From NCBI GenBank assembly GCA_039621445.1, contig CP154954.1, positions 38,661,301 through 38,681,300 of the forward strand: DNA of 20,000 bases, written 5' to 3'. A model generated the notes under the pieces. It saw only the letters and a program-made list of their open reading frames with translations, ran no database searches and had not been told where the DNA came from. The position numbers and the translations under genes are program-made. This document shows, one piece after another, positions 1-20,000 of the stretch; within the stretch, counting starts at the first letter, position 1, and each line of letters opens with the position of its first letter. Source of the DNA: Euglena gracilis. Its lineage: Eukaryota.

Positions 1-420
1 CTTTAGCCTTAAATCCTGGTACAATTGCAAAAAAAAAGCCAACTGATTTTTGTCAAAAACACGGGGGGAATCTGGCTTTTTTTTGAAATTATTTATTTCA
101 TTTATGTTATGCATTTATTTATAATGCAGAATTATGCGGTAATGTGGAATCATACAGAATTATGTGAACAAACCAGTGTAAAAGTGAACAAAGCGGTCAT
201 TTTTTTTCGCCCAACGCTGGCAAAGCAAACCAAATTCAGGTGTATCAGGTGATTGGCCACAACCCGCACCTCTCACACTGATCCGGGCCAGGTGGGGGAT
301 CGTCAAGATGTCATTTGCGGGAGGGGATTTGACAACAAATCCATTCCAAGCCACAATACCACAAATATTGCAAAAGGTCCGATCTTGGCCAGTCTCCCCT
401 TCAATCCTTTGATCCTGCAG

Positions 421-2233
421 GCGTACGGATCTGATGCAGGGGAGAGCGACGATGGGAAGAAAGGGTTGAAGAAACGGCGGCCTTCGCGCCCACGAGGTCC
501 TGGCTGTGTTTGGTTTGTGTTTTGTGTTTTGCGTGATCACGGATTGGAAGCTTTTATTTTTCGGCCGGTGCTGATCCAAATATATTGGCTGCTTTGGTAG
601 TGAAACCCGGGACACTGTCCACATCTTGGAAAAGTTGCCTTCGAGCTTTGAATGGCCATTTTAAAATGCTGCCCTCCCCCCCCCCCCCTTCCAGAGGCCC
701 AGTGGTGAACCGTGGGGTTGTCGCCAGGCATTTGCTTAAGGGATTGCAGTACCCCCCCCCCCCGGGGGGGGGCTGGACTGCAGCTAGTCCAAATTTGGCT
801 AGTGGGTTTTCTAGCAGACCCCCCGGGAGGGGGGGGTCTGCTAGCAGGGCTAGCTAGTGGAAAAAAATTTTCCAGTGACCGGCGCGAAGCGCCGAAAATT
901 TTTTTGGGGACCCCCAAAAATGGCCAAAAATGCCCGTTTTTGCACATTTTTGGGAATTTTTGGAACAAAATCAGCCAAAAACCTGTTAAAAACCTCATTT
1001 TTCCTCTGGCGCACAGCGCCGGAGGAAAAAATTTTTTCTAGTCCGGGGGACCCACGGACCCCCCCCCCCCCCGGGGGGGAGGGGGGGTCTAGCTAGTCCA
1101 CTTTTTCCAGTGTCTAGCCGATTGGCTAGCCAGTACCCCCCCCCTGGGGGTCCTTAAGCAAATGCCTGGTTGTCGCTGAAGCCAGAGGACACCCCATCCC
1201 AGGGGCTCCCCCATCGATGTGCTTTAAGTTTGTCCCAGCTGCCCAAAGGGCGGTTAGACGCAGCAGATGTCCTGCAGGTCTCTGGGTCATGCATTTATTG
1301 AGAACCCCCCCCCCCCGGTGGGGTAGTAGTTGACTCGTTGCTTGTCTGCAGATTCTACACCCACTGGTCGGCAACAGTCACCACAAGCCACTGCAGAATG
1401 TGCTTTTTTTGCGATGCCAGGCACCAGATTCCTGCTGGCACACATGAAAGGTGAGCAGGGGTTTTCTTAGACCCCCCCCCCGGGGTGGGGGGGTCCCACA
1501 GGCCGGCCGGAAAATCGTGCAAAAAAATGGTGCAGGTGGGGGGAGAGGGTCCGGCCGGCTGGGAGCTGGACTCGGCGTGTGCCCAGAAAAAAACCCCCCA
1601 AAAAGCCCAAATCTGCTCAGGGCCTCAGCGTCGCTTTGCTTTGGGTTGGCCTCAGGGTTCACATTTGTATATGAACCCCCCTGGGGAGCAGGGCTCCACT
1701 TAAAGAGCCAGAGCGGACCTGGGGGAGAGTTCCAGCCAGCCATGAGATTTCTTCTGGCCAGCATTTTTTTTCAGCCCAGGATCCCCCTCCCCTGGCGACG
1801 GATTTTATTTTTTTGTTGTTTTTTTGTCTGGCCGCCCAAAGGAGTAATGGATTTTGGAAGGTATTTTGGTGGGCCAAGGGTTGGTTAGCAAGGAGTTGCT
1901 CCGCTCAAAGTTTAAGTCGTCTCACGCTGGGTTGCTTTTCAGGCCGTTTTGATGGAATTGGTGTGTCGGGTCCCAGTTCGACCCCGGCCAGGCCAGTTCC
2001 AGCCTGAGGACCCCGGGGAGGGGCCAGCCAGCAGCTTTCTTCCGGTCGGCTCACATTTTCCCGCCCTGAGCTGGCCGGCCGCCAAGCGGGGGGGCCGGCC
2101 TGGGGCCGAACCAGCGAGGCATTCTGCGGTGCCCGGTACCCCCCAGCCCGCTGCCCCCGGCGCTGCCCCGGTGGAGAGCCGGCTGATGAAACCCACCGCC
2201 AGTTTCTTGCGAAAGACTACCACTCGCGTCTGA
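421..2233 (+). CDS. 3' part of an upstream unidentified gene: exons ~421-496 and ~1992-2233 (stop TGA), low-complexity C-terminus
   Basis: Acceptor CCTGCAG ends at 420, then AYGSDAGESDDGKKGLKKRRPSRPR. GT at 497 and AG at 1990-1991 join in frame to GQFQPEDPGEG...SRLMKPTASFLRKTTTRV*. Both exons are GC-rich. The exact junction is uncertain. Confidence 0.55.
725..1168. mobile_element. hAT-type MITE, family A copy 1 (444 bp)
   Basis: 17-bp TIR CAGGCATTTGCTTAAGG / CCTTAAGCAAATGCCTG; perfect 8-bp TSD GTTGTCGC (717-724, 1169-1176); subterminal CTAG repeats; a second copy at 7420. Confidence 0.93.
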
Positions 2234-2412
2234 CCCCCCTGTCCCCTGGCCGCAATCGGACGATGGCACTGGTGAGAGGAAGAAGTAGCACGCATCTTTT
2301 TATTTGAAAAGAAATTGACAAGTGTCAGATGAAAGGACAGTTGCCCCCGTTTTCTGCATTTGGTCTTGAGGGCATCGGAAAGGCCCATTCCCATCCTAAA
2401 CAGCAATTTCTC

Positions 2413-2584
2413 CCCAACGCACACAACACAACACAAATACACTCACCCACCCACACCCACCCACCAGACAACAAATCATGTGCACAAGAGTGTGAGGTGT
2501 GTGTCTGTATGCATGTGTGTTTTTTTGTGCCCTGTGTGTTGTGGTGTGTGTGTGCGCGCGCGTGTGTGTTTGTTGGGTGTTGGG
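2413..2584. repeat. CA-rich arm followed by a TG-rich arm
   Basis: Low-complexity AC repeats at 2413-2470 and TG/CG repeats at 2490-2584; the outer ends CCCAAC / GTTGGG are complementary. Confidence 0.7.
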
Positions 2585-4743
2585 TGGAAACATTTTTTGG
2601 TGTTGACACCCCAGGGCCAGTGCTCCCATTTTACGGTGCTTTAACCTCGCCAAGTTGGCATGCTGCCTTTCATTTCGCTGTCATGCATCGAGGCAGGGTG
2701 ACTGAGGTGGGTCGTTGGTGCCGGGTAGCACTCTGGGCAGGACCGCAGGACTTTTTTTTGAAGTTTGTTTTTGTTTGGGAGTCCAATGGGTTCAAACCTT
2801 TCCCCAATCACCCTTTCCCCGGTCCCCTTGTTGTGGGACCTGTGCCGCCAGTTTCGCATGTGTGTCGCCTTCAGATCCCCCACCCCGACGGCCCCCCCAC
2901 GCAGGAGGCATCCGTGTGGTGTTTTTTCCCCTCCCGGCTCTTCCTGTTGGTGTCCAAAAGTCCGGACTCACAAAAAGACGAAAGTTTGCGGCGCAGATCC
3001 ATGCCACCCCTTCCGTGTCCTCCAAGCAACTCCAAGTTTGCAGTTCCGCAGTTGCACGCGGTGCGACACCAACGGTTTGTGCCCGAATTCCGGCGTGGAG
3101 CGGCAATGAGGTTCCTGGCCACGGCCGGGACACCGGCTGCCCCCTGGCCCCCTCCCGTCACGACGCATGTCTGTGCATGGCCGCTGCCTCCGTAGCACTG
3201 GGCTGCCCCACTACTGCTCGCGCAGCTTGGCTCTGCTACGCCCCTCATTCCGCCCACCCCGTTCCTGCCCTCCCACCCGAACCTTAGAGTGACCTGGTCC
3301 TTCCCTTATTTGTATTGCGGTTTGCCTTGCAGAGGGTTGAAGAGGTGATTGCTCTGCGGACAAAAATTCCGGGAGGCAAAAACAAATGAATTTTTTTCCC
3401 GGTAGTTTTTGTCCAATGCACCTTTCCCACTCTTTGCTCTTGGCTCTTTGCGAGAGCCACTCTCAGAGGTAGTCAGATTCCATACACAATGAGATGGGGT
3501 TCTGCAATGTTGTCAATTCTTGGGGTTCATTTTGAAATGAAAAAATTCAAAATACAACACCATATTTATATTTTTTTCGGAGTTTTGAGTTGATTTTTGC
3601 TTATAAATCTTCATAGCAACTTGAGATAACAATCACCATTCTCCCTAAAATTTTGAGGTTTCCCATACATTTTTTTTTCCAACCTGATACTTTTCTCATA
3701 TTTTTGCACCTTCATATTTTCCTGTAATTTTTGTCTGCACTGTATTTAGTTTTTCGCTTAATAACATTTCTTTTGGCGGTGGGGGGTCCCATTTTCTCAG
3801 GGGTGTTCTCTGCAAACTTTCGGGTTGGCCTCGTCAGGTCCATCTCACCTCCTCCCCGAAGGATGCCTCAAATGGCGAGCACTCATGCTTTTCATGCTGG
3901 AACACATTTGTGCAGTCAATTTCTTGAAGTGTGAGCCACAGCCATTGGTTGGTGCTTTAATTTCAAGGTGTATCCACAAGGGGACAGCCTGGAAAACACA
4001 GAGATGTTATGGCCATGTATGGATGACACCAGAGCGGGGGGGGGGGAAATGGGTCTTTTTTATGTTTCTTTTTTTTTATTTGGCGAAATTTGTGTTTTTT
4101 GTGGTTTTTTTAAACTTTTTTGTGTTTTTTCCCCAGTGATTTTTGTATTTTTTGTTGCCTATTTTTTGCTCTGAAAAAATCCTCATTTTGGCCTCGATTT
4201 CCCTCGAGACCTAAAATTTTGTCAATTTTTTCCAGCATTTTTGCACTTTTTGGACAACAAAATGTTTTTCTAAGTCCTCTTTTTTTCAGCGCCAAAGGCG
4301 CCAATTTTTTTTCTTTCAAAAAGGTGCTATTTTTGGTATTTTCTTGCATTTTTTTTGGCCATTTTTCAGGGAAAAGTGAGTGACGGGTCCCCCGGCCTCC
4401 CTCCCCAGGGGGTGGGTGGGTGGGGTCTAAACCCCCGTTTTTCCCCCCCCCCCCCCCGCATCAGAGCCTGTATTCAGGCATTAATTTCAGCCAAAAATTC
4501 TCAGATAAATTTATTTTTTTAGTTGAGTTAAAAAGAATTTTAATTTAAGTTTTTTTTAAAAATGTTTTAAGGTATTTTAAGTTTTTTGAGCTTTCAATTT
4601 TCCAAAGGCCGGGCCGCCTTTCTGGGCCACCTGGTTATCGAATGGGGTCCAACATAAAAAAGGTCAAAGAACTCATTTCTTGAGTTTGGGTGGATAGGCA
4701 ATGTTCCAGCGATGTCAGAAAGGCATTTTGGCCAAAAATTTTC

Positions 4744-4915
4744 AGGTACAGGTATAAGGTATATACACACACACATACATATATAGGTGTGTATACACAC
4801 ATATATAGGTATATATATACAGGTACAAGGTATAGGATTTTTAAGGTATAAGGTAGAGGTATAGGTTTTTTAAGGTATAAGGTGTAGGTATAGGTTTTAG
4901 GTATTTTTAAGGTAA
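4744..4915. repeat. Degenerate AGGTAT(A) repeats with TA/CA dinucleotide runs
   Basis: Many copies of AGGTAT/AGGTAC. Confidence 0.8.
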
Positions 4916-5518
4916 TTAAAGATTTTTTCAAGGCGCCTTGACAAAATAATGCAGGCTGCATTTGACTGCAACATTTCATCAATGAGGTTGCATCCCAGTG
5001 AAGAAGGCAGACAAGTGCGATGTCAGGTGCGAGCTCATCAAAGTCATTCCATTTCCTCCACCAGGGGGGCCGACCACCAGAGGACCCATCCTTGCATTAA
5101 CCCCCCTGCAACGATCTTTGCCCCCTGCAACGTTATTTGGGCAGTACCCAAAACCATCAATGGACCGATTGCAAACGTTTCCAAAAGAAATTTGTTGACA
5201 TAAGCTGTTCACAAACATTTATTGCATAATTTTAATGCACCATTTCATCAAATACCAGGGCATTGTGGCAGTTCGGATGATTCCTTGCGCCACCACCGCC
5301 TGATTTCCCAAACAGATGCATGATTTCTCACCGGTTTTCCTTGCGAAGGGGGCAAAGGTATTTGGCCCGACCATTCTCGGCCTTCCCCCTGCCAAGTTGT
5401 TCGGGCACACAATGCTTTAGGGCAGTGCAAAGTTGTTTTGGAGAGGTTTAGGGGGAGGGGGCACGGACCCGCCCAGTGGCCTGGCCGTTTCCGCCTCCCG
5501 CGCCGTGTGTTGCCGCGG

Positions 5519-5535
5519 CCCCCTGTTTGCCGCAG
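5519..5535 (+). promoter_or_regulatory. Putative splice acceptor (spliced-leader trans-splicing or 5' UTR intron) upstream of the ATG
   Basis: Pyrimidine-rich CCCCCTGTTTGCCGCAG ending 35 nt before ATG 5571. Euglenozoan mRNAs are commonly SL trans-spliced. Confidence 0.4.
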
Positions 5536-5570
5536 GGCTCAACCTCGAGGGAGCCCTCCGTTCCCCCGCC

Positions 5571-5713
5571 ATGCCCGGCCGCCTGCTGCCAGCCATCACA
5601 CAGCCCGAGGGCACCGCGGCCCCGGGTCGCTGGGCGCTGCTGGGGCCCCTGGGCCTTTGCCTGGTGGCCGGGCTGGTCGGCTCCGCCCTCCTGACCGGAC
5701 AGCGCATGCCTCC
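5571..5713 (+). CDS. Exon 1: signal-peptide-like N-terminus (MPGRLLPAITQPEGTAAPGRWALLGPLGLCLVAGLVGSALLTGQRMP)
   Basis: ATG in a GCCATG context, followed by a hydrophobic stretch. The exon ends at a nonconventional junction, with a possible 1-nt ambiguity. Confidence 0.75.
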
Positions 5714-8205
5714 CATCAGTGCTTTTCCAAAGAAAAAAGCCTCAAAAAACCTGTCCCCCACCCATGGAAAGCGCCACCTCCCTCTTTTTGTTGTACCTCC
5801 CCCCCCCCATGCCCAATGAACACCCTTGCCCAATGAACAGGGGGTGTTCGGACCGTCTAGATTGTCACCATATACCCTATCTACACAGAAACCGTACCCA
5901 AAGCCCAATGAACACCCCCCGTTCGGACCGTCTGGATTGTCACCTTAGTGTTCATTGGGCTTGGGGGGGGAGGTACCTCCCTCGCGTGTCAACATTTCAG
6001 CACAATTCCTGGCATATTTGCATTTTTTTGTTTTTTGATCTGGCCTCATCACACCGAATGCTTTTCTCCTCCGTCTTGATGATTTGGCGGAAAAGTCAAT
6101 TGGCACCAAGAGTCAATTGGCACCAATTGCAATGCTGCGCTTGTTGCACAATTTCATCCTGGAAAACAAAACAGACGAACAAGGCTGGTGGCCACTCCGG
6201 GGGCCGAACTCACACGTTCAACACCGCAGCGACACACTGATGCCGCCGACCGAGCACTTTGTTCGCGTGGCCCCTGTCACCCAACCCACGGCCGTGGTCG
6301 CCGCCGTCCCCCCTCGGCTGCGAGATGCGGTGGCCCAGGGACCAACAGCACTGGCGGGGTTTCTGAAGGACGCTGACGTGCCCACCGTCCAGTCTCAGGT
6401 TTTTTTGTCTGTGTTGGATGCGGTACATGTGCATTCATTAAACCTCTGCTGCCTGGCCCCCAGATTCTGGAGTAGGTGGGTTTGGGCATTCTGGGTTCTG
6501 GTGGGGGGGGATGTCTCTGCCCGTGGTCCAGATGCCCAAGCAGCCATTTACGTGTACCATTTATCATACCATTTGTTTGCCATTTATTTGTGCCATTTAT
6601 CCGTGACTCACGGTTATTGGCCACAGACCCTCCTGGCCAACCCCTAGGGGAGTGAGACAGGAATTTTTCTTGGAGATACAGCCGAAATCTATGGTATGCG
6701 ATTTTTGGATAAGTTTGTGTTGTGTAGTTTTTGTTGACCCCCCCTCCACAAAGGGTTGGAGTGATGGACTGGATCTCAGAGAAGACTGGTCTTTGAAAGT
6801 GAAGAATGACCCTGTCCCCATTGATATGCCCCCCCCCCCAGACAAGAAGGGGGGCACAAACCACACCGCCAGTTTTTGTACCAAACCTTTTGGCACAGCC
6901 GTATATGAACTGGGTGAGGATTGGTAATTTTCCATGGGCCAAAATCTACCTGCCAAAAAGTGCCACCAACCCCCGGGACCAGGTCACCTGGGTTCCCCAC
7001 CCCCCAAAACCCCATTATCACTGGAACCACTGCTGGTTAACAACCCCGAATAGTGAAATTTTGGCAATTTTTCGGCATAAATCGGGGCGGGGGGGGGGGC
7101 GTGATTTTCAGGGCCAGGTTGCCTCAATGCCAGGAAACGGGGGGACCCCCCTAAGGTATCAAAAGCGCACGAAACCTTCTTCGGACCTGGACTGCCATTG
7201 CTTTGCCCTTGACTCAGCTGACCGCTGTCCCTTCTGTTCTTTTTTTTGCAGCACAGCGACTCGCCCCACGCGTTGGGCTCCTTTGCGATGGTGGCCCTCG
7301 GCAGTGCAGTGGCTTTCGTGTGGGGACAATGCCATCCGGAATGATGTCCCCGATTGTTGTCTTTCCCGCCGCCTCCCAAGGTTGGAAAGTGGTCATGCCA
7401 GCACTTGCCATCATGCAATCAGGCTTTTGCTTAAGGGATTGCAGTACCCCCCCCCCCCGGGGGGGGGCTGGACTGCAGCTAGTCCAAATTTGGCCAGTGG
7501 GATTTCTAGCAGACCCCCCCCGGGGGGGGTCTGCTAGCAGGGCTAGCTAGTGGAAATTTTTTTCCCAGTGACCGGCGCGAAGCGCCGAAATTTTTTTTTG
7601 GGACCCCCAAAATGGCCAAAAATGCCCGTTTTTGGCCATTTTTGTGAATTTTTGGAACAAAATCAGCCAAAAACCTGTTAAAAACCTCATTTTTCCTCCG
7701 GCGCTGCGCGCCGGAGGAAAATTTTTTTTCCAGTCCGGGGGACCCCCGGACCCCCCCGGGGGGAGGGGGGTCTAGCTAGTCCACCTTTTCCAGTGTCTAG
7801 CCGATTGGCTAGCCAGTACCCCCCCCCGGGGTCCTTAAGCAAAAGCCTGCATGCAATGCAGGGCGTCCCCCCCCCCTGTGCGCCACAGGGCCGTTTGACA
7901 CAGCTGGAGTTTTAATCTGCATGCTTGAATCACAGTGCTTCAAAATGAAACACAAAAGGTGTTCTGAAGTGCAAACAACACAAAAATTTTTGTGGTATGT
8001 TTACTGACTGAAAGTCTAGTTTGGATGCGTGGCTGCCTTTCCAACATTTCCCGGTGGCATGGCGGTGATATCTCTTGGGACGCAAGCGACCTCAACCACT
8101 ACCCATGGCGATGGCCTCCGTCGGCGATGAAGGTGTGTGGTTTGACTTTCCATTTATTATTGTTTATTATTTCTATTTATTATTTATTATTTATTACTTG
8201 TTATT

Positions 8206-8272
<67 letters not shown>

Positions 8273-8299
8273 TTTTATTATTTTTTTATGTATTTATTT

Positions 8300-8339
<40 letters not shown>

Positions 8340-11300
8340 CTTATTTATTATTTTTTCTTGTTGGAAAAGTCAGAGGAAACAAATTTGCCATTTTGGTTGT
8401 GAATTCTGGACAACGTTTTCCAGTGGTTATGTCCCCACTCCCTCTTGATGCGTTTCTTTGGACCTCTTCCCCATTCTTTCCTCTGTTTCTCTGCCTGCCT
8501 CCGGCGTTGGCGTTCTGCAAACCTTCTGGCTCTCTCATCTTTTCTTCAGATGAAGGGCCGATGGCCGTGTGAACTTAGTGGGGGGAAGGAACCAGTCACC
8601 CATCTGCCCCCTCAGGGTTTTTTTTAATTTGGAGACTTTGATTTTGATTTTTAATTTGGGGACTCACCCCCCCCCCTGGGGCGGGTGAGTCCCCCCCAAG
8701 GTAGTCAGCCAGATAGTCCCTCGCTCAGAGGCGGGGTTTTGGCTTTTTTTTGGCACAAGGTGCCGATCTTTTTGACCCCAAAATGGGTCCCCACACTGGC
8801 AGGGGGCACCCCCCTGCCCCTGAGTGGGTGGGGGAAGCCAGTTTGTAAAAAAATAAACACTGGCCCAACGCCCGTCTTTGCCAGAGAACCGCAGCGAGTG
8901 GGACAAGCGGGTGTCGGTGCTGGACCAGGGAGCGCCAGGTGTGCTCCCCTCCGGGGGACGCCCTCGGGCGCTATTTGCGATGCGGCCGAACCAGAGAACC
9001 ACCCGATTGCCGACATCCCCACCTCGCAGAAGAGGCACCTTCAGGGGCGAACCTTGCAGATATTTCTTGCAGATATTCCCACATTTTCCACACAAGCAGT
9101 TTTGTTCATTTGTGGGATTTTTGTTTCCAACAGGATTCCGCTTTTAAATGGCAGGTATTTTGGACGCCCAAAAAAATCACTTCGGGGTTTGCTTCTCCCG
9201 GGCACTGCCCCTGGGGGGAGCACCTGTGCCCGCCCAGGCATTCTAGGGTACTCAAGCCCCCCCCCCCCGAGGTTGATCAAATTTGTTTAGCCTGTCATCG
9301 TCACCGCAGCATTCCTTCCAAATAGCTGGAAACTGGCAAACTTGGGCATTGAAGTGGGATAAAAAGCGAGAAAGGAACAAAACCATGAAAATAATTGCGT
9401 GGTGTGGAAACGTTAAGTAATAATCCTATGTGGACTTGGAAAACAGCATTGTGGTTTTGGCATGCATTTGGGGGAATCAGAGCTCTGCGGTTGGCAGCGT
9501 GCAAAAATGTGGAGGAAACCATCGAGCTTCATCGACCACGGGAAAGTATCAGGACAAAGTCCAAAAGCAAGAGAATGCATGGCTTTGTATATTTGCCCTC
9601 TTGTTCCTCAGACACCCGCCATGTGTCGGAGGCAGATTTTGGGAATCTGCTGGTCAAGTTCGTCCAAGAACGTTTTGGGGAGGAGCAGACCAAGCGAATT
9701 GTTGACTCTTTCCGTCGGGTGTGTACTGTTACTCACTGCCCACCTTTTTTAAACACTCCGCATAATTCCTTTTTGTTTATTTGTCATATTTTTTGGTGGC
9801 ATTTAGTCAGAAATGGACATGGCTCAAATTATTATTATACATTTACAATAAATGATTTGCAGTAAATAATAATAATAATAAATGGCAAATAATCAGATAT
9901 ATTCATTGCATGAACAGGGTGGTTCTCAGGCGGCCGGCTTCGCGTTTTCGTGTTGGTTTGTGCATTTGCGCAAATCAACACGGAAAAAAATTGGCAGTGT
10001 GACTACGGGGAGTCGCAGGCATGACACAGTGACCAGCGAGTGGAAATAATGAGTAAGCTGCGTAAATTATGGCGGGTGTAACCCCAGGTATTTTGGCGAA
10101 ATATGGTGTTTTTTGGGGGGGGTCTGGAAATGGGCTCCGCATCTCAAAACTCCCGGGACTTTCCTCCCCGGAATGACAAAAATGCAAAAAAAAAAAAAGA
10201 GGCAAAGGAATGGGACTTTTACCCCCTTCTTGCTCCTTTTATTTAGTGTTATGTGTTTGGTGTGTTTTGCAAAGTGCGGGGAGGGGATGCTGGGGCCTGT
10301 GGGTGTGGTGTGACCAAGCTGGCGGGAAGGACGTAGAGCAAGGAAGGTAAGTGCAGGGTATTTAGCAAGGGATGGGCAGGGGGGGAAGAAATGGGGTGCG
10401 CAGGACGGGCGTTCCCACACAACTTGTGTCCGGGATACCATTGCTTTTCACCTGTCCCACGGGGGTGCCTGACTGGTTTTTGTGAGTGACCCCCCTCCCC
10501 CCTGGGGGGGTCGCTCAGCAATGGTATGATCCGCACAACCAGTTTTGTCACAAAGAACCCGGAAGAAGAAGCACAACCTTTGAAGAGCAAAATTTATTAG
10601 TGGGTGTGAATGCACACACAAACAAATTTTGTTCGTGCGAGCTTTCACGCCCATGAACACAATTTTGTTCATGGACGCCTGTGAACTGACGCCGTCGATA
10701 AACGGCATGACGAAGGGGCCGTGACAGCACGGCGCCAAAAACATATTTTGGGGGGTTTGTCACACCGTTTATCGACGACGTCAGTTCATGGGCGCCAAGG
10801 CGCTCACAAGTATTTGTTTGTGCGCGCATTTGCGCCCACAAACAAAATTTGTTCATGGATTCTGAATGGTCGACACATGGTGTGACAAAATACACAGCCA
10901 TCAAATGCGGGTGAATCGCTGAAGCGCGCATCACGTTTTGTTCGTGAGCACCATGCCCCAAAATGAACCAGTTGCAGAAAATCACAAGGGGTCCATTTGC
11001 GCCTGAGCCCCACACGAACAATGTCCCTTCGTTGTTCTGTTTTCCACCAAGGGTCCGCCCGTTGTTTCGCCCCTGTTCCGCACCGTGCCCCCTTGTGTGC
11101 CAGACGGAGCGGGGCGAGGAGTTCCGCCAGCGGTTCGGCCCGCACCCGTTCATGGAGCAGATCGCCAGCTCATACATCGCAGGACTGGCCAGGACTCCGG
11201 AGAACCTGTTGTGTGGTTTAGACTGGCGGCGCCGCGGCCGACGGTTTTGTGCGCTGCGGCCAATGCCACACCGGAATTCATTTGCGCCACGACCGGTGCC

Positions 11301-14300
11301 GAAAAACTATTCTGTGTCGCAAGGCACCAATTGCATGCTCCACCTCCCCGGCACAGCCCTGGGGCTGACCACCAAACCGGACTGGCCCGCCCCCGCCCAG
11401 ACCTACCCCTGGGCCAAGGTGGTGCAGGAGGGGTGGCCGACCATCCGCGCCGAGCTTGAGGAGGTGTGCCTGGGTGCAGGGGGCGCGTGCCACCACGGCA
11501 CTGGTTCCGTGATTCCATTGGGTTGGGCTTGGCAGGAGGAAAACTTGACCTGGACAAATTTGTGCAGTTAATACTGCCCAAATATGTTTGGATAGTTTCT
11601 AAAATTGCCCAAACTTGCTTTGTTTATTTCAAGCATGTGAAATGCCAAACACCAAATGCACACCCTCCAAATAATTTTGCTCCCCTGAGAAGTTGGTGGG
11701 CCGATCTCATTTGGGCAGTGTTTAAAACCATTGACAAACCAATTTTCCATTTTCAATAAGAGTGATTTTGTGTCAAATGCTCTACTTACCAAGTATTTTA
11801 TCTGATTCGACATCTCTGTTCACTGGACGACAAAACATTGCATTTCGAACGATTTGTTTGTGTTTACCGCCTGGGCATTTTACAGAAATGTGCATCGTTT
11901 TTCATGTTGTTGCTTGTGGGGGGGGCACTGTCATTTGGACGGACAACCATGAGCATGAGTTATTGACCGATGAGGGGTCCCAGGTTCACTTCTGCACAAA
12001 TTTTTCCTTTTCTTTTGTGCAAGCACCGTTATTTGCATTTTTTTTTAAGACAGTGCCTGCAGATGACACTTGGATGCCCCCCCCCCGTGTCCAACAAGCA
12101 TCCATTGTCTGGACAGTTTTCCCTGTCCATTCCGTGTTTGCAGTGAATGGGTGGCTTTTGTCTGTATGGCCAAAATGGTATTTTTGAGGGTTTTTTTTAG
12201 GGTTTTACCTGAATTTTTTTTGACTGAATACCAGCTGGCTTTGAGCTGTTTGCTTTTTTCAAGTTTCTTCCGGTCGGCAGGTCGGCAGCCTGCTGCCCCG
12301 CCCCCCCCCCAAAGCGTGGGGTCCATTTTTCTGGCCAGCTGCCCCTAGTGTGGTTTTTCGACCCCCCCCCCCTCGCAGGTACCCTTGAGAAATTCTCTGA
12401 ATTTCGACCTTGCCATTGTTGAGAGGGACGGGGGTGTCGCCCACCCCCACCCCTTGCATCGCCCAGTGCCCCTGCCAAAACCGTTGTGTGTGTCGGTGTC
12501 GGTCGATTTTTGCACACAAAATAGAACTCCAGTTGGCCCCACTTTTCATTTGCGACTGTCGAATTTGCCCGCCAATTGCATGTTTTCAGTATCAACATCT
12601 GAACAAAATTCATGTTACAATTAGTTGCACCATCAACAATTTTCCCCAGAGGGGGGAGTTTTCCCAAGTCCTGGCCAGAACTGAAGTAACCTGGGGAGCT
12701 TTTGAAGGAATTTAGATACAACAGCTTTTTTTGCAGTTTTTGTGTGTTTTTTTTGTCGCATTTTTCGAGGGTCCCCATTCAGCCCCCCCCCGGGTGTCCC
12801 CCCTTCGCCCATCCCCAGGCCATCCGCCTGGGGGACGAGGGGCTGAAGGCGAAGGGCTCAGTCAGCTGGATGGGGGCGCAGGGCGGCGCCGACTCCTACG
12901 GCACTGAATGGAAGACCCTGGGCCTGTGCGACCGGGGCTACTGGGGCCATGCCGCATGGTGGCGTGGCGGCCACCCCGACCGCGCCGGTACCCCTTGGTC
13001 GGCTCACCTGGCCCTGTGGGGAAACGCTCACACGCCCGTCAAACTGGAAAAGGATTGGGGGTTCCCATTATGTTCCCCGGGACAGTTATTCGAGTGTGCC
13101 GGCCGGATTAGTGCTGAAGAGTGTGAAAAACGTGCGGATGTCACAAAACTTGCAATTTTTTGAATGAATCTGGATGGGTGGTCAGGGACCCCAAATGTGG
13201 TACCCCTTGTCACGGTGGTCTGCGGGGGGGGGGGGGGCATGGGTCGACCCCACACGCGTGAGGGCTGTTGCGGAGCTTCTTTGCTGAGGGGGCGGTTGGA
13301 ACGAACCCGCTGGGGGCGCAACAAATTGGGGCTTGTGGCGGGAGGCCCACCCTGGGGGCCATCCGGCATGCCTTCGACGATGACAACACCCGGCTGTTCA
13401 AGAACACGTGCCGCATCCTTCGCAAATCGAGGTGCGCTGAGTGGGTTTGGTTGCTCCGGTACCACCCCGGAGTTGGATTGTTCTCGCGATGCCAAGGTGG
13501 ATCGTTTGCTGTTCTCTTGATTGAGAGTTTTCTGGTTTCGCTGCACATCTTCATTAAGATCTGTTCGTTGGCTGTGCCACTAGGTTGCCCCCCCCCCACC
13601 CCCGGAGAGAGAAGGGGACCCCCCACCCTTGAGGTGGTCTGGGCGGGTTGGTGTGCCTGGGCCTGGACCTCGGGGGGCGGGGGCTTGGGTATGGGTTTCG
13701 GCACGAAGCGCCAGAAATTTTTTGGGAACGTTTTCAGACGGCCCAATGTTTTTTGGTGCCCCCCCCCCCCTTGGGGTGTCCTGCACTGGGCTTGGTGGGT
13801 TGCCTGGAACCCCCGGAGGGGCCGTAAAAAAAGGAAGTCCGATCAGGTCCCCAAACGTTCTGCAAGGCTGGGAAATGATGTTTCCGTCGGGGCAGTGGTG
13901 CGTTGAGGCATACGCTGGGCCACCAACGCCCCTGCCCCGCGCGGTGCGGGCTGCGCGGCCCAGGGCCCCCATCATGGAGTGCTTCTTCGCCAAGATGCCG
14001 GCGCACACGGCCATCAAGCCCCACTCCGACTACACCAATTTCGTCCTGACCTGCCACCTCGGCCTGAAGACCCCACCGAAGAGCCACATCGCCTGCGGGG
14101 ATGCCCGCCATGAGTGGAGGTGCGCGCACAATTTTGATGCTATCGTCCCAAGAATTTCAATTTATGGTCGAAGTTCGTCTTTATATTTATCCTGCAAGCT
14201 GTCAGTTGCCACCATGGTTGTTGAAATGAGAGAGAACTCCCAAGGCCCACCATGCAGGAACCGGAATGCAAACGTTTTTTTTTTGTGTGTGCGTTTTTTT

Positions 14301-17292
14301 CATGCTTTTTGGGGTTTTTTTTGTTTTGTGTTCCTGCTTTGCTCGGAGTTTTTCCGACCCGCAAAAATTCTACCTTTTTGGTCCTGATATTTTCCCGAGA
14401 CTAAAGTTTTTGCCAAAAAAGGTGTTTTTTTTTTTGGACCTTTGGCCAACAAATTGCAGAAATTTGGAATGGTTTGCAATGGTGAAAGCCATTCCCCCAA
14501 AAAGATGAAAAAATTTTCCAAGTCCTCTCCTGCAGAAACGTGTACATCCTGGGGGAGCTGAAGGAATATACATGCATTCTTTTGCATCTTTTGGCGTCGT
14601 CAAGGGTCAATGTTGCATTTTCCTCCCCTTGCTTTATGGTGAAGGGTCCAATGCTGTCTCCCATCTGCCTGGGCATTTGGCTGAGCCCACATATTAATTT
14701 AGCATCTGCGTGACCCCCCCCCAGGTTTTTGAAAGTGGGTGGGTGGGTTGGGCCGCTGGAACCCTCCCCCCAGGGTGCACCATGGGTCAGTCCGGCGGCC
14801 GGCAATCCAGGCAATTGCTTAAGCACTGACCGACCCCCCCTCCCCGGGGGGGGGTGACTGGTTTTTTCAGAGTGACTGACAGGTCTTTGGCCCGGACTCC
14901 CTCCCCCCCTGGGGGGGGGTCGGCCAGCAGTGGGTCAAAAGTGGCTTGAGTGACCCCGGCGCCTTTGGCGCCGGAAAATTTTTTGGCCTAAAATGGCCTA
15001 AAGTGACTGGAAAGTGGCCGTTTTTCTGAGTGGCCGACCCCCCCCCCGGGGGGGTAGTGACTGGCTGGTTTTTTGAAAATGAGTGACTGACTGGTTTTTT
15101 TTTATAAAAAAGTGGAGTGACCCCCCCCTCCCCCCCCCCCCCCCCGGGGTCGGTAAGCAATTGTATGGTCCGGCCAGTCAAAGGCCATGCTGGGAAAAGT
15201 TTGCAAGAGTTTCTGGCCGATTTTAGGCGAGTTTTGGGTGCGTGGGTTGGTTGGCGTGGGTTTTCAATAAAAGTGGGGGGGGTGGGTTTAAACCCACCCC
15301 GAGGGGGTCTCGGAGTGCCATGGAGTGTCTGGGCAGCCAAAGGCACTGGAGGTCCATTTTTTTTTGCTCAATTTGCCTAAAAGCTTGCCTCTGCAAGGTT
15401 GCTGACTCTTCCAGAAACCCATGCAAATAAAAATTTCTGAAAATGACTGAATTTTTTTTTGCAAGTCCGCACGAAACACAAAGTACGTTATTTTGGGGCC
15501 CTCGAATGATGTGCCGATTTTTAGGTCAAACGTTCCTTCGGTGCCGAACGAATGTCTCTGCACGGCGCTGTGGGGGGACTCTCTGACTGCTGGGGGGCTC
15601 CGACATAAATTCAGTTGGTACCTCCCTGGGGGACAGGCAACCCCGGTTTTTGGTCTCCGGTGGGGTCCGGTGGGATCCGGTGGGTTGCCTTGGGGGGGGG
15701 GGGGGCGGGAAAAAACAGATGTGGCAAAGCGGTTTGGACCGGCTTTTTGCATAGGCACCACCCCTGCCGGGGTCTGCCTGCCGAGAAGAGTTTGATGAAA
15801 ATGCATCGCACCTGAATTGTCGAATTGACGGAGACGTTATCATTCAAAAACCCCATAACCTGTTAGTTTATCAGACTGCTGAGTCGACCTATAGTTGAGT
15901 CGACCAACTAGGTCGGTTGGCTGTACAAGAACTCCGTGCCCATGCAGTGCCACCACATTCATGGCCTGGAGTCAGGGTTTTGGCCTTTTTTTTATTGTCC
16001 CACATGAGTCACCTTTTGGCTCTGTTTAATGGGCCCAGCCAGGTGCTCTCTTTTTGCCCCATCACCACGTGGGACCACCACATGGCGATGCCCTTATAAT
16101 GAAGAAATCCAGAAGAAAAATCTGTGCGTGGAAGAAAATTTCCGGTGGGATGCGGTGGGATCTGGTGGGAAGTCCCCAGTCAAATGGTAAAAAAAAATCC
16201 CCGGTCGGATCCGGTGGCTGTCCTTGCCGGCTGGGGGAGCACTTTTCCCTGGGCTCAATTTTGGTGTCCAGGGGCCTGTGGCGTTCACCCGGGAGTGCAA
16301 AGACCTGTGGTTGCGTCGACCCGTTCAATTCACCATGGGTCGACTAACCCTTGAAGAATTCATGGACCCACGGGGTTGGATAGCCAACGAACACACCCCA
16401 TCAGCAGATTGGATTGCTGAGTCGACTCAACAGGACCACCCCCTGCAATTTGATTTTCCGAGGGTTGGTCGACCCATGGTTCAGTCGACCGACTGAGACT
16501 GCGAACATATTCAGGGGGTCCAACCTCAACGTATTCAGGGGGTCCAACCTCCCCCCCAGTTTTCTGTCATCCCGGATCCCCCAGGTGGTCTGACAACGCT
16601 TTTTTTTCTGTCAGGTCGCTTTCGACTCGTTTTGGCTACTTCAAAAGCAAAAAAAAAAAATCCGTCTGTGTTGGGTAGCTGGATAAAGATCGAAATACTA
16701 CGACCGTATGATTAAAATTTGTATTATTTTGCTCTTTCTGGATTTTTTGTTGCTGTTTTGATTTTTCTGGGCGTAGCTCCAGCTGCAGGACCCATCTGGG
16801 GGGTGTTATACCACCTGTGGGTGGTCGAGGGTGGTCGACCCCCCACCTGGTTTTCTTTCAACCTGGAGGGAGTGTTTCGACCTTGTTCTGACACATTTTT
16901 TGAAGTTTTTCCCCCCTCAATTGCATTTCCTTTTGCCCCTTTTGTGGTGCTCTCTTCTGACAGGGACGGAGAGATGTTCCTGCTGGACACCACGTTCATC
17001 CACGAGGCGGTCAACGAGTCCGATGAAGACCGCTACGTGTTGCCCTCGGCATTGCTGGGGAGGGGGCCCCGCATAACGCCCCAAGCGAGGGACATAGCAC
17101 CGTCCAGGTAGGGGCTGGGGCCAAGGTCACCCAATGCATTGCCATGCTGAGAGGACAATCATGCGGGTGTGGCATCCGGATCTGACGGCGACGGAGATCG
17201 AGGCAATCACTTTCTTGTTTGACTGCGTGGACGACAGCGATATCATCTTGCACCCTGATGGTCTGGCCATGTACGATATGATGAAGGTGTAG
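5571..17292 (+). CDS. Multi-exon gene: plastid-targeted ASPH-family (aspartyl/asparaginyl beta-hydroxylase domain) Fe(II)/2OG dioxygenase, ~441 aa. Exons: 5571-5713, 6245-6398, 7252-7324, 8067-8132, 8885-8938, 9612-9718, 11104-11186, 11367-11463, 12819-12944, 13376-13431, 13964-14119, 16964-17041, 17157-17286 (then GTG TAG, or a further intron)
   Basis: The exons join with consistent phases into 1323 nt of open frame. The product has ASPH-family motifs: YIAGLTTKPDW...WPTIRAELEE, WKTLGL, FFAKMPAHTAIKPHSDYTNFVLTCHLGL, HEWRDGEMFLLDTTFIHEAVNESDEDRYVLIMRVWHPDL. Exons are GC-rich islands in low-complexity introns. The true 3' end is uncertain. Confidence 0.88.
5714..6244 (+). other. Nonconventional intron 1
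   Basis: No GT-AG. The 5' CATCAGTG pairs with the 3' CACTGATG; CAG at +4..+6 and CTG at -8..-6. Removal restores the frame. Confidence 0.7.
5793..5976. mobile_element. Inverted-repeat element inside intron 1
   Basis: ~30-bp inverted ends GTACCTCCCCCCCCCATGCCCAATGAACAC / GTGTTCATTGGGCTTGGGGGGGGAGGTAC. Internal direct repeats: GCCCAATGAACA x3 and GTTCGGACCGTCTRGATTGTCACC x2. Confidence 0.65.
6245..6398 (+). CDS. Exon 2: Ala/Pro/Thr/Val-rich transit-peptide-like region
   Basis: PTEHFVRVAPVTQPTAVVAAVPPRLRDAVAQGPTALAGFLKDADVPTVQSQ; ends CAG|GT in phase 0. Confidence 0.75.
7252..8132 (+). CDS. Exons 3-4 (7252-7324, 8067-8132): stop-transfer helix and basic/PMAMA segment of the presequence
   Basis: Spliced, they read HSDSPHALGSFAMVALGSAVAFVWG|YLLGRKRPQPLPMAMASVGDE. 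Acceptor TTTTTTTGCAG ends at 7251; donor GTGTGT at 8133. Confidence 0.8.
7325..8066 (+). other. Nonconventional intron 3 (contains a MITE)
   Basis: 5' GACAATGCCATCCGGAATGATGT pairs with 3' ACATTTCCCGGTGGCATGGCGGT in the +n/-(n+2) register. Removal rebuilds a continuous transmembrane helix. Confidence 0.8.
7420..7849. mobile_element. hAT-type MITE, family A copy 2 (430 bp), inside nonconventional intron 3
   Basis: TIR CAGGCTTTTGCTTAAGG / CCTTAAGCAAAAGCCTG; perfect TSD CATGCAAT (7412-7419, 7850-7857); colinear and highly similar to 725-1168. Confidence 0.93.
8152..8352. repeat. (TTTA)n microsatellite in intron 4
   Basis: About 200 bp of imperfect TTTA/TTA repeats. Confidence 0.95.
8885..9718 (+). 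CDS. Exons 5-6 (8885-8938, 9612-9718)
   Basis: ENRSEWDKRVSVLDQGAP|DTRHVSEADFGNLLVKFVQERFGEEQTKRIVDSFRR, with AG/GT sites and matching phases. Exon 5 is phase-symmetric, so it is less certain. Confidence 0.7.
10434..10528. mobile_element. Short (95 bp) relative of family B
   Basis: ATACCATTGCT / AGCAATGGTAT inverted ends. The interior and right end (TGACTGGTTTTT...GTGACCCCCCTCCCC...GGGGTCG..AGCAAT.GTATG) resemble 15085-15167. Confidence 0.6.
10543..10890. repeat. Long imperfect inverted repeat (foldback, ~350 bp)
   Basis: Paired arms include TGAACTGACGCCGTCGATAAACGG / CCGTTTATCGACGACGTCAGTTCA, CACAAACAAAT / ATTTGTTTGTG and TTTTGTCACA / TGTGACAAAA. Confidence 0.85.
11104..11463 (+). CDS. Exons 7-8 (11104-11186, 11367-11463)
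   Basis: TERGEEFRQRFGPHPFMEQIASSYIAGL|TTKPDWPAPAQTYPWAKVVQEGWPTIRAELEE, the motif that precedes the ASPH catalytic domain. Confidence 0.85.
11187..11366 (+). other. Nonconventional intron 7 (180 nt, in frame, no stop)
   Basis: CT|GGCCAGGACTCCGG...CCGGCACAGCCCTGGGGCT|GA, with Y|R at both junctions, CAG at +4..+6 and CTG at -8..-6. Confidence 0.85.
12819..14119 (+). CDS. Exons 9-11 (12819-12944, 13376-13431, 13964-14119), including the HxD metal-binding motif
   Basis: AIRLGDEGLKAKGSVSWMGAQGGADSYGTEWKTLGLCDRGYW|DDDNTRLFKNTCRILRKSR|APIMECFFAKMPAHTAIKPHSDYTNFVLTCHLGLKTPPKSHIACGDARHEWR. Confidence 0.9.
12945..13375 (+). other. Nonconventional intron 9
   Basis: CATGCCGCATGG (from +4) pairs 11/12 with CCATCCGGCATG (ending at -6). 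Removal joins GYW to DDDN. Confidence 0.85.
14808..15167. mobile_element. MITE, family B (360 bp), with a TIR related to family A
   Basis: CAGGCAATTGCTTA / TAAGCAATTGTATG (12/14); repeated GTGACTG motif; no clean TSD. Confidence 0.75.
15872..16501. mobile_element. Degenerate MITE-like element with GTCGAC subterminal repeats
   Basis: CAGACT...AGACTG ends with clusters of GTCGAC at both ends; an inverted partial copy at ~18144-18255; no TSD retained. Confidence 0.55.
16964..17286 (+). CDS. Exons 12-13 (16964-17041, 17157-17286), with the distal His, the 2OG-binding Arg and WHPDL
   Basis: DGEMFLLDTTFIHEAVNESDEDRYVL|IMRVWHPDLTATEIEAITFLFDCVDDSDIILHPDGLAMYDMMK. Confidence 0.9.
17042..17156 (+). 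other. Nonconventional intron 12 (115 nt)
   Basis: TT|GCCCTCGGCAT...ATGCTGAGAGGAC|A; an 8-bp stem with one G-U pair in the +4/-6 register and Y|R at both junctions. Removal joins DRYVL to IMRVWHPDL. Confidence 0.87.
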
Positions 17293-17564
17293 GATGTGCA
17301 GTGTGCAGACAGAGTGTGGGAAGCCATGGTTGGTGATAGCTGGAGGCCGAAGTTGAGAAGTACAATGCGCATGATTTTCCTCACTGGAATGTGGAGGTTT
17401 GGCACGAATTTTTGACGTTGATTTGTCAGTTGGGCATGGAAAATATTTAGTTGCATGTGCAATAAATGTTCACCTCCAAAGTGGTTTGAATTTATTGTAG
17501 ATATGTTTCTTCTGGAATCAGGGGGGCAGATTTTTTTTGAGTTTTGTGACCCTGGGGGGTGGTT

Positions 17565-17945
17565 CAGGGTTTTATATAAGGAGGGCGTATATGGTTTAGG
17601 TGGGGGGGTGTCCCCCCACCCCCCTCCCCCTCCTGGCCCGCGGGGGGGGGTCCGCCCCCCCCCCACCTGCCAGGGGGTGGGGGATACCCGGGACCCCCCC
17701 CAAAAAGGGTCAATTTTTTCCTCTGGCGCTTTGCGCCGAAAATTTTTTGCATTTTTTTGGAAAATTTTTGCCCAAAAAGTGCCCAAAATGGCGCTTTTGG
17801 TCGTTTGGGGGGGTCAAAAATTTTCGGTCACCCAGACCGCGCCACTGTTCAGGTGGGGGGGGGTCCCCCCACCCCCCCCCCCTCCTGGCCCGCAGGGGGG
17901 GGGGGTCCAGGCCACCCCCCCCACCTGTCTTTATATCAAACCCTG
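17565..17945. mobile_element. hAT-type MITE, distinct family (381 bp)
   Basis: TIR CAGGGTTTTATATAA / TTATATCAAACCCTG (14/15); perfect TSD GGGTGGTT (17557-17564, 17946-17953); internal duplicated G/C-run block. Confidence 0.9.
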
Positions 17946-20000
17946 GGGTGGTTGGTTGGGTCACGGCCGAGCCCCCTCCGGGGGAGGGGGGGGTTGGGCT
18001 GAGTGGGTGCCCCTTGGTGGTGGGGTTTTGGTCTATTTTTTGGCAGGAAGCAGCGAAAGGATCTTTGGACGCCAAAAGTGGGTCCGGGCCCCTTCCACCC
18101 TCCAGGGTGGGTGGGTGGGTCCGGACCCCGGGGGGTCTTTTTGACAGACTCAGTCGATCGACTCAACATTGAGTCGATCGCTTGAAGGGTTGATGAGAGT
18201 TGATTGGCAGGGGGGGGGGTTCCATTGAGCCAGTCAACTCAACAATTTGCTGTACCCCAAACGGGTTAACCTTCCGAAGATCCTGCAGGGCTTGCTTATA
18301 CAATGGGGATCGGCGCCAGGGGTTAAAAAAAAACCATGCCCCAAATGCATGTTTCCCGCTGTGGTTTTGGTTTTCCCCAAATTTCCCAAAATTAAACATT
18401 AAATAATTTTGGAACATGACGTTCTTTGAAGGAACAAAGTCAGCTTTGGGTGGTATTTAGCATTGAAAAAGAAAATGGTTTCACTTGGTTAGGTCTTTTG
18501 CCATTCTTGCCACACCATGAACCCCCCTCCTTGGAGCCCTCGCCACACTGTGCGGCAGAGGTTTTTTTAGTGCCCAGGGTGGAGGGAGGGGGGGGTCTGG
18601 ACCCATCCACCCACCCTCTGGTCCCCCCTTGGGGGGCTCAGGGGTTCCACCGTTGGGGTCATTTTGGTAATTTTTTTCATCGCCAAAAAAATAGAGCTGA
18701 TTTGGCTGATTTCTGCTGTCCTTACACCATTTTAATGCAAATTCCTTCGTATTGTCCAGTCAGGGGTTGCTTATATTTGGGTTGTGTTTATATTTCGGTG
18801 GTGGCTGAAAATCGGCCAAAGGGTTGCTTGGTTTTTTTGAGGGGGGTTGCTTATATTGGGGGGGGGGGTGTTTCTTGGTGATAATATCTCTCTCCATCAG
18901 CTTTGACAGTTCAGGTGCGATGTCATCATCAAAAGCTCTTTTCGCTGATTTTTTTTGCACTTTCAACAAATTTCCCATTGCCAAAAAGGAAGACATTCAT
19001 CATTCTATTTTTAGTAAAAAAAATCGATGGCTAGCAATTTTAGTCCATCGCAATCTGAAATATTTGTTTAAAATGGAAGTTCTATTGCAGAATTTAAGGT
19101 TCGAAAGGGATCCACACAGCACAGAAAATGTACCAAGGTTTTCCAGGAATCGTCAAGAATTTGCAATTTTCCAAAAAAAATAAAAAAATGGATTGCAAAG
19201 TTTGACCTTTACCTGGCATTATGGATACAAATGACGAGGAAGCAACTGTTAAATTTGAGCATCCCAGTACACCGTCTGTGGAGGTCTTAGGACAGGGCAT
19301 CAAGTGGCTGGCTTTGTTCAGGGGTTGCCCCATATGTGGGGAGCCCTCAATCCTCCCCAGCCCTGAAACCCCCGAAATTACGGCTAACCATCGGCATTGG
19401 AGGCATTTGAATTGAGAGGCATTTGCAGTGGTCATCTACTGCATTTGCTGCATTTGCTGTGCTTCACAACAAATTTTTTTGCCCTTTTGCACATGGGGAG
19501 GGTTGTGTCACCCTCAGCTTCCATTTTCTCTCACAGGCCCACAGAATAATGGAGTGGAATACCATCCTTGGTCCTGGGGACACAGAGGAGGAGTCCCACA
19601 CAGGCCTTTTCTGTCGAAAGGGAAAAAGGAGGACTAGTTTGGCTGACAGGAGGACCAGTTTGGCATCTCAATTGTCAACTCAAGGTTGGGTGCAAAGGAA
19701 TGTCGAATGTTTAAAAACGGTCTCAAATTGTCTGTCTCAAATTGGGCAGTCACCTCAACGGCTTGAAAGAGACAGACGGGCACTTTGCAGCTCAGAAGTC
19801 GTTTGATCGGTTGTTTTTGGTTTGGGGCAAATGTGGGGGTGGAGCACCCGCTGGATGATTACGACGCAGATGGCAAGAAGAGGCCTCCATCCAAGAAATT
19901 CTGCGCCAAATAGCAGAGGGCCAGATACCGGTGTGTTGCAAGTGCATGATTTCATAAATGCATGGATGCTCGTGCATGATGCATTTGTGGTGTGTGTGTG

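Follow-up and report, generated by a model that had tools for sequence, protein, structure and literature searches.

Transposable elements with 8-bp target site duplications fit the splicing code of nonconventional introns in Euglena gracilis and suggest a possible origin for these introns

Nonconventional (NC) introns of euglenids follow a splicing code which knock-in mutagenesis in E. gracilis has defined as 5'-N3CDG-/-CH'GN5-6|Rexon (Nomura et al. 2025, PMC12501133). The 5' spacer of this code is strictly 3 nt, tolerating neither +1 nor -1, the 3' spacer works best at 5 nt with 6 nt tolerated, and E. gracilis splices entirely synthetic introns of 50 bp that were designed after the code (PMC12501133). 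In the same knock-in test no particular nucleotide was needed as the final base of the upstream exon, and the three bases of the 5' spacer were free, as N3 denotes (PMC12501133). Genome-wide, the NC consensus of E. gracilis reads CCAGG at +3..+7 and CCTG at -9..-6 (PMC11170887). As an initial annotation of the DNA described here had noted, an origin of NC introns from miniature transposable elements with inverted repeats (MITEs) has already been proposed, in 2014 (PMC3935182), and the literature also mentions repeats resembling a target site duplication (TSD), the 'TSD-like repeats' (PMC3935182, PMC11282704); the 2025 knock-in study states that both the origin of these introns and the reason for their asymmetric code are open (PMC12501133). 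The present study concerns a 20,000-nt stretch of the E. gracilis genome (contig CP154954.1, 38,661,301 to 38,681,300, forward strand; hereafter the window), which carries three intact MITEs named A1, A2 and B, with A2 at 7420-7849 as the main subject. The ends of these elements and the length of their TSDs fit the published code, and an origin of NC introns from a transposon plus one TSD copy is, in our view, the best reading, with a rough probability of 0.6.

A2 is a non-autonomous cut-and-paste DNA transposon, a MITE of a CAGG...CCTG terminal inverted repeat (TIR) family that makes 8-bp TSDs. The features of A2 and of the other two elements are given below; the elements and their repeats carry no strand assignment.

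7412-7419, no strand: upstream copy of the A2 TSD, CATGCAAT, found by direct reading and by script
7420-7849, no strand: MITE A2, 430 bp, CAGG start and CCTG end, several internal C-run/G-run hairpins
7420-7436, no strand: 5' TIR of A2, 17 nt, 17/17 complementary to 7833-7849
7833-7849, no strand: 3' TIR of A2, 17 nt, exact reverse complement of the 5' TIR
7850-7857, no strand: downstream copy of the A2 TSD, CATGCAAT, found by direct reading and by script
7417-7854, plus strand: NC-intron span of A2 as predicted by the published code, N3 + element + N5 with A as the next base; 438 nt, equal to the element plus one TSD
725-1168 (717-1176 with TSDs), no strand: MITE A1, 444 bp, TSD GTTGTCGC at 717-724 and 1169-1176
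17565-17945 (17557-17953 with TSDs), no strand: MITE B, 381 bp, TSD GGGTGGTT at 17557-17564 and 17946-17953

A CAGG start and a CCTG end are common to all three elements, and over the first 12 nt the TIRs match at 12/12 positions in A1 and A2 and at 11/12 in B. The family A TIR, which in A2 reads CAGGCTTTTGCTTAAGG, is perfect over 17 nt (17/17). A1 and A2 are 91% identical over 444 columns and their TSDs differ. The ends of B differ from those of family A (CAGGGTTTTATA.../...TATCAAACCCTG, 11/12 complementary). Families A and B nevertheless have an internal core in common, which is inverted and 66% identical over 196 nt; this inverted core, together with the unlike TIRs, suggests modular reshuffling among MITE families. 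Thus, A1, A2 and B show TIRs, an exact 8/8 TSD in each of the three, small size (381-444 bp), several copies and no coding capacity. The open reading frames (ORFs) over them had no Pfam family match when the 145 ORFs of at least 75 aa in the window were scanned. Over B, the summed word depth of the DNA run reached ~331,000 in the bin 17688-18074 as against ~45 in single-copy bins, a figure that C/G runs inflate.

The initial annotation had claimed three intact MITEs that start with CAG, end with CTG and carry 8-bp TSDs, and both direct reading and a script bear this out. A scan of the whole window for an exact 8-bp TSD with an adjoining TIR of at least 10/12 gave nine matches, namely A1, A2, B and six low-complexity C/G-run matches. 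Among 20 locally shuffled windows used as the control, 19 contained no match and the remaining one contained a single match. Furthermore, 184 CAG...CTG pairs in the window have a TIR of at least 9/12, and a flank identity of 8/8 was found for A1, A2 and B only, the next best being 6/8. A relaxed scan of the window for CAG...CTG ends, TIR and TSD gave no further convincing elements. Metagenome loci that match the 17-nt TIR pattern (117 loci, one match each) were considered as family copies and rejected as chance, since blastn with A1, A2 and B gave matches of 20-34 nt at the seed only.

The published NC consensus is the same as the CAGG/CCTG ends of A1, A2 and B, and the agreement spans four letters on each side. 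Counting 3 + 5 nt of the TSD copies, the N3-CDG and CH'G-N5-6 items of the code are present in the sequence of all three elements. The base pairing after CAG and before CTG is present as well, according to both the TIR comparison and the RNA fold. For A2, the predicted fold is a rod closed by the TIR stem, with -246 kcal/mol and a z-score of -11.2, and 0 of 100 shuffles folded as well. The sequence is AAT-CAG...CTG-CATGC|A at A2 and GTT-CAG...CTG-GGGTG|G at B, so that the whole code can be read off both, including a downstream exon that opens with a purine (A in A2, G in B). At the same place, that is at N5, A1 has a C. The 3 + 5 nt geometry put forward in the initial annotation is therefore the one that the knock-in code (PMC12501133), which it did not cite, arrives at; its further claim that splicing at these offsets removes the element and one TSD is consistent with A2 and B; A1 departs from the purine rule at N5. 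If A2 does act as an NC intron, any cut within the TSD would be equivalent, and the removal span listed above is a prediction.

How an insertion could become an intron may be pictured as follows. The NC code would amount to a helix starting with C-A-G/C-T-G, flanked by cuts 3 nt upstream and 5 nt downstream, the exon then opening with a purine. A whole copy that is transcribed and has a purine at TSD position 6 would be excised with one TSD copy, because 3 + 5 nt is the length of the TSD, and its excision would return the RNA to the pre-insertion sequence. The bases mirrored at the two junctions would then be the same TSD positions 5, 6 and 8, and the donor consensus (pyrimidine|purine, or Y|R, and C at +3) would be a copy of the acceptor consensus made by the duplication. 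In the published NC set, a pyrimidine ends the upstream exon in 49/55 and the intron in 49/55, and a purine starts the intron in 51/55 and the downstream exon in 55/55. C is the third base of the downstream exon in 30/55 and is also the consensus at intron position +3 (PMC11170887). Since the knock-in data show no base requirement on the donor side and the N3 spacer is free, the conservation of the donor side is more plausibly a copy than a signal. Junctions that can slide are found at 69.1% of the NC introns of E. agilis (PMC12501133) and at 11,653 of the 16,151 of E. gracilis (PMC11170887).

NC introns within the window itself were sought in the positions 8400-20000, to which a raw RNA-seq run, a DNA run and two sets of probable RNA contigs were mapped. 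Positions 1-8399 were left out beforehand to avoid a (TATT)n array at 8153-8355, and A1, A2 and the 5' end of the gene described here thus lie outside the mapped part. Ten joints were seen in RNA only, with 0 in the DNA run: six GT..AG introns and four NC introns, all on the plus strand.

11185-11364, plus strand: NC3, 180 nt; with a +2 shift, CAG at +4..6 and CTG at -8..-6; flanks GGACTGGC / GGGCTGAC, 6/8 match
12945-13375, plus strand: NC5, 431 nt; CAT / ATG; 11/12 end pairs; flanks 4/8; seen in the raw reads X21 only (56+49)
17042-17156, plus strand: NC8, 115 nt; CTC / GAG; no junction repeat; flanks 1/8
19596-19890, plus strand: NC10, 295 nt; with a +2 shift, CAG / CTC; 11/12 end pairs; flanks 3/8
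8105-19931, continuing past the window, plus strand: aspartyl/asparaginyl beta-hydroxylase gene, from RNA joints, with PF05118 on two exon ORFs
8105-8130, 8883-8935, 9609-9717, 11103-11184, 11365-11461, 12817-12944, plus strand: hydroxylase exons 1-6 in the leftmost register, from RNA joints
13376-13429, 13962-14117, 16962-17041, 17157-17284, 19535-19595, 19891-19931, plus strand: hydroxylase exons 7-12 in the leftmost register, from RNA joints

The joints of NC3, NC8 and NC10 occur in both reads and contigs. Splicing the hydroxylase exons gives a stop-free ORF of 338 aa, which aligns to a 326-aa homolog (P0002) at an E value of 6e-75; the joints therefore represent real splicing, because the exons that they join give an open frame aligning with a homolog. 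Besides distant homologs, the protein search returned only P0001, a genomic and unspliced ORF from the same species, with no spliced protein among them. A loose RNA end marks an extra exon that ends at ~8130 and holds the likely start codon at 8105. The (TATT)n array, of ~46 units, lies within the first conventional intron of the gene (~8131-8882). Three exonic differences (12860 A>G, 12905 T>C and 17022 G>A) are shared by the two RNA contig sets, the majority of the raw RNA reads and the DNA run, and they are strain or allele variants rather than editing.

According to the initial annotation, five NC introns pair their ends in a register that begins at +4 and ends at -6. Four were seen within 8400-20000 rather than five, and for all four this register is possible, with 11, 10, 11 and 7 positions paired among the first 12. 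NC3 and NC10 need a shift of 2 nt to fall into register, which their 3-nt junction repeats permit. In 4/4, both the intron and the downstream exon begin with a purine, and the intron ends in a pyrimidine. A check proposed along with the initial annotation, namely whether the 8 nt on either side of the helix are the same, was run on these introns by setting the 8 nt that precede the CAG-equivalent against the 8 nt that follow the CTG-equivalent, with locally shifted 8-mers as the null. The pooled identity was 14/32 (6, 4, 1 and 3 of 8) against a null mean of 8.3, with P ~0.03 at n=4, a result that is thin and in the predicted direction. The match of 6/8 at NC3 is reached by 0.6% of shifted pairs and becomes 8/10 when extended by two positions. 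A clear relic of a TSD is thus seen in one of the four NC introns. The minimum-energy fold of NC3 does not close on its ends (z +0.29).

Several of these observations weigh against a transposon origin. Both CAG and CTG stand at the register positions in NC3 only (1/4), so that the CAG/CTG consensus which the initial annotation had invoked applies to this intron but not to the other three, with CAG/CTC, CAT/ATG and CTC/GAG; NC5 and NC8 even fall outside the published CDG/CH'G code and yet are spliced. The flank identity is within chance in 3/4 (4, 1 and 3 of 8), and n is only 4 for the pooled P of 0.03. None of the four NC introns (0/4) has significant similarity to families A and B or to other sequence of the 20-kb window. 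Among the MITEs, TSD position 6 is a pyrimidine in A1, where N6 would give a G but leave the product 1 nt short. Although the mirrored published consensus agrees with the idea that both junctions share a Y|R, this dinucleotide occupies TSD position 5|6 in one of the three MITEs, so that insertion alone is no guarantee of a spliceable copy. No MITE copy was observed spliced in the mapped positions 8400-20000, and B, which lies there within the conventional intron 17285-19534, is uninformative on NC splicing, because this GT-AG intron removes B anyway.

Such findings could simply mean that A1, A2 and B are ordinary MITEs of introns and intergenic DNA untied to NC introns, that the latter arose by, for example, double-strand-break repair or decay of conventional introns, and that CAG...CTG ends are merely common among transposons with 8-bp TSDs. 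The lack of similarity between the four NC introns and the MITE families, the chance-level flanks of three of them and the position of all three intact MITEs outside coding exons agree with such a coincidence. In the only known strain-specific NC intron, intron 4 of gapC in E. agilis ACOI 323, the junctions carry direct repeats of eight nucleotides, which the authors attribute to double-strand-break repair (PMC4770533); this also speaks for coincidence and against a transposon. The same repeats are longer than those at any other intron of that study, and the intron was recently gained (PMC4770533). A coincidence would have to cover three independent matches, namely the CAGG/CCTG letters, the spacer sum that equals the TSD length, and the 8-nt repeat at the youngest NC intron known; besides, a donor-side consensus without functional need would be left over. 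We consider coincidence unlikely; the likeliest course of events is a descent of many euglenid NC introns from elements of this kind with 8-bp TSDs.

Whether A2 itself is removed from RNA is approached through one contig. A2 lies just upstream of the hydroxylase gene, with 248 nt between its 3' end and the likely start codon (8105). Record 1 of the RNA contig set X1 carries 377 letters upstream of 8883. Read collinearly, this record starts at 7754, in a C7G6 run of A2 that is a natural assembly break point; with A2 and one TSD taken out, its start would fall at 7316, a position unmarked by any end. Judged from these coordinates, the assembled transcript, in its 5' untranslated region (5' UTR), may include the final ~96 nt of A2, which would then not have been removed, a hint against the splicing of A2. 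The same contig picture could result from slow NC splicing or from trans-splicing at a site within A2. The 5' UTR of the hydroxylase gene either starts inside A2 or skips it (7754-8130), and A2 may contribute a promoter, a site of trans-splicing or a portion of the 5' UTR.

A further alternative turns the causality around. The NC system would have come first, and transposon families which happened to fit it would have been harmless in genes and so have spread, in which case most old NC introns need not descend from them. That synthetic sequence without any transposon past is spliced once it carries the code (PMC12501133) suits such mimicry or survivorship, as does the existence of end types other than CAGG...CCTG. 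Taken alone, this leaves the mirrored donor-side consensus unexplained, and also the origin of the 3/5 asymmetry. We regard it as improbable, more so than coincidence. Under the preferred origin from a transposon plus one TSD copy, we infer that MITE copies are spliced and that NC introns descended from them. A stronger form is offered tentatively, as one that may well prove wrong: every CAGG...CCTG insertion with an 8-bp TSD in a transcription unit of Euglena would be born as a seamless intron. The NC pathway would measure 3 + 5 nt from the TIR helix, remove the element and one TSD as a circle and religate the target. It would be an RNA-level eraser of one transposon lineage, and this lineage would be the source of most Euglena introns (~70%), with the 3/5 asymmetry as a fossil of the 8-bp staggered cut of the transposase.

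To which superfamily the elements belong is a separate matter. CAG termini are common in hAT elements, whose terminal pattern is YARNG. B (CAGGG) fits this pattern at 5/5 positions and family A (CAGGC) at 4/5. Like hAT MITEs, the elements have an 8-bp TSD, short TIRs starting with CAG, no coding capacity and a size of 380-445 bp. They differ from hAT MITEs in that family A misses the fifth position of the terminal pattern, that the three TSDs fit the hAT target pattern poorly and that no transposase partner was seen, the Pfam scan giving no transposase domain in the window. The label 'hAT-type' for A1, A2 and B is a reasonable guess from TSD length and terminal letters. The 8-bp TSD fits hAT and also Merlin (8- or 9-bp TSD), and two Merlin families with 8-bp TSDs have been reported in E. 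gracilis (PMC8101967). Together with the missing transposase and the 4/5 fit of family A, this makes another superfamily with 8-bp TSDs, such as Merlin, a possibility, although the less favored one. The conserved termini of Merlin are GG (PMC8101967), which the elements here lack, as they begin with CA and end with TG. Three E. gracilis copies in one alignment snippet of the supplement end in ...GTACC before diverging, and three terminal strings that were looked for are absent from the 9 text files of that supplement (PMC8101967).

Further MITE-like elements with C-run/G-run hairpins lie at 14808-15167, starting with CAGGCAATTGCTTAAG and ending in ...GCAATTGTATG, and at 10434-10528, with the ends ATACCATTGCT/AGCAATGGTAT. 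A second end type, CATAC...GTATG, thus seems to exist. The two elements show no clean 8-bp TSD (2/8 as read, and 7/8 if the element at 14808-15167 starts 10 nt earlier), and the DNA-run depth over them is among the highest of the window, with bins at 91,000-230,000. The first three and last three paired letters of NC5 are those of the CATAC...GTATG type, and its length of 431 nt is near the 430-444 nt of family A. NC5 was considered as a multi-copy element and dropped, as the high DNA-run depth over 13044-13430 can stem from a G14 run and short shared motifs. At G/C runs at 15692-15709 and 17865-17885, raw RNA reads give a joint of the 'opposite strands' kind as well as long loose ends of poly-G/poly-C; these signals most likely arise as artefacts of sequencing or mapping at homopolymers that many MITE copies have in common.

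The MITE idea has stood since 2014 with no named element attached to it. In the full texts and the 2024 review that were open to our search, subscription papers lying outside it, no named MITE family, TSD length or 3+5=8 argument was found. The general idea is known; what appears to be new are the specific elements, the argument from the 8 bp and the account given of the donor consensus. Concrete families would make the idea testable, and they would explain why the donor side is conserved though not needed. If true, this origin would make Euglena a case of intron gain on a genomic scale by a non-spliceosomal route, and it could explain where most Euglena introns come from.

Compared with known systems, A2 and B share with euglenid NC introns (PMC12501133; Milanowski et al. 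2014 and 2016) the CAG/CTG (CAGG/CCTG) start of the helix, the 3- and 5-nt spacers, the purine at the exon start and the pairing of the ends. In contrast to those introns, A1, A2 and B are multi-copy transposons with intact TSDs, and as introns they are predictions from sequence. The introners of Micromonas and Aureococcus and the TIR- and direct-repeat-bearing ones of Amoebophrya (PMC11282704, PMC7789003) are similar in that the insertion of a non-autonomous TIR transposon makes an intron, the TSD overlaps the exon/intron boundaries, and removal takes one TSD copy (PMC11282704, PMC7789003). Intron copies of a repeat family, which define introners, were found for 0/4 NC introns in the 20 kb examined. 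Furthermore, where introners are removed by the (sometimes modified) spliceosome at GT/AG-type sites supplied partly by TSDs of 3-5 nt (PMC11282704, PMC7789003), the elements described here would depend for their removal on the NC pathway, which is not of the GT-AG kind and measures from the helix, and their 8-nt TSD would be divided into 3 + 5.

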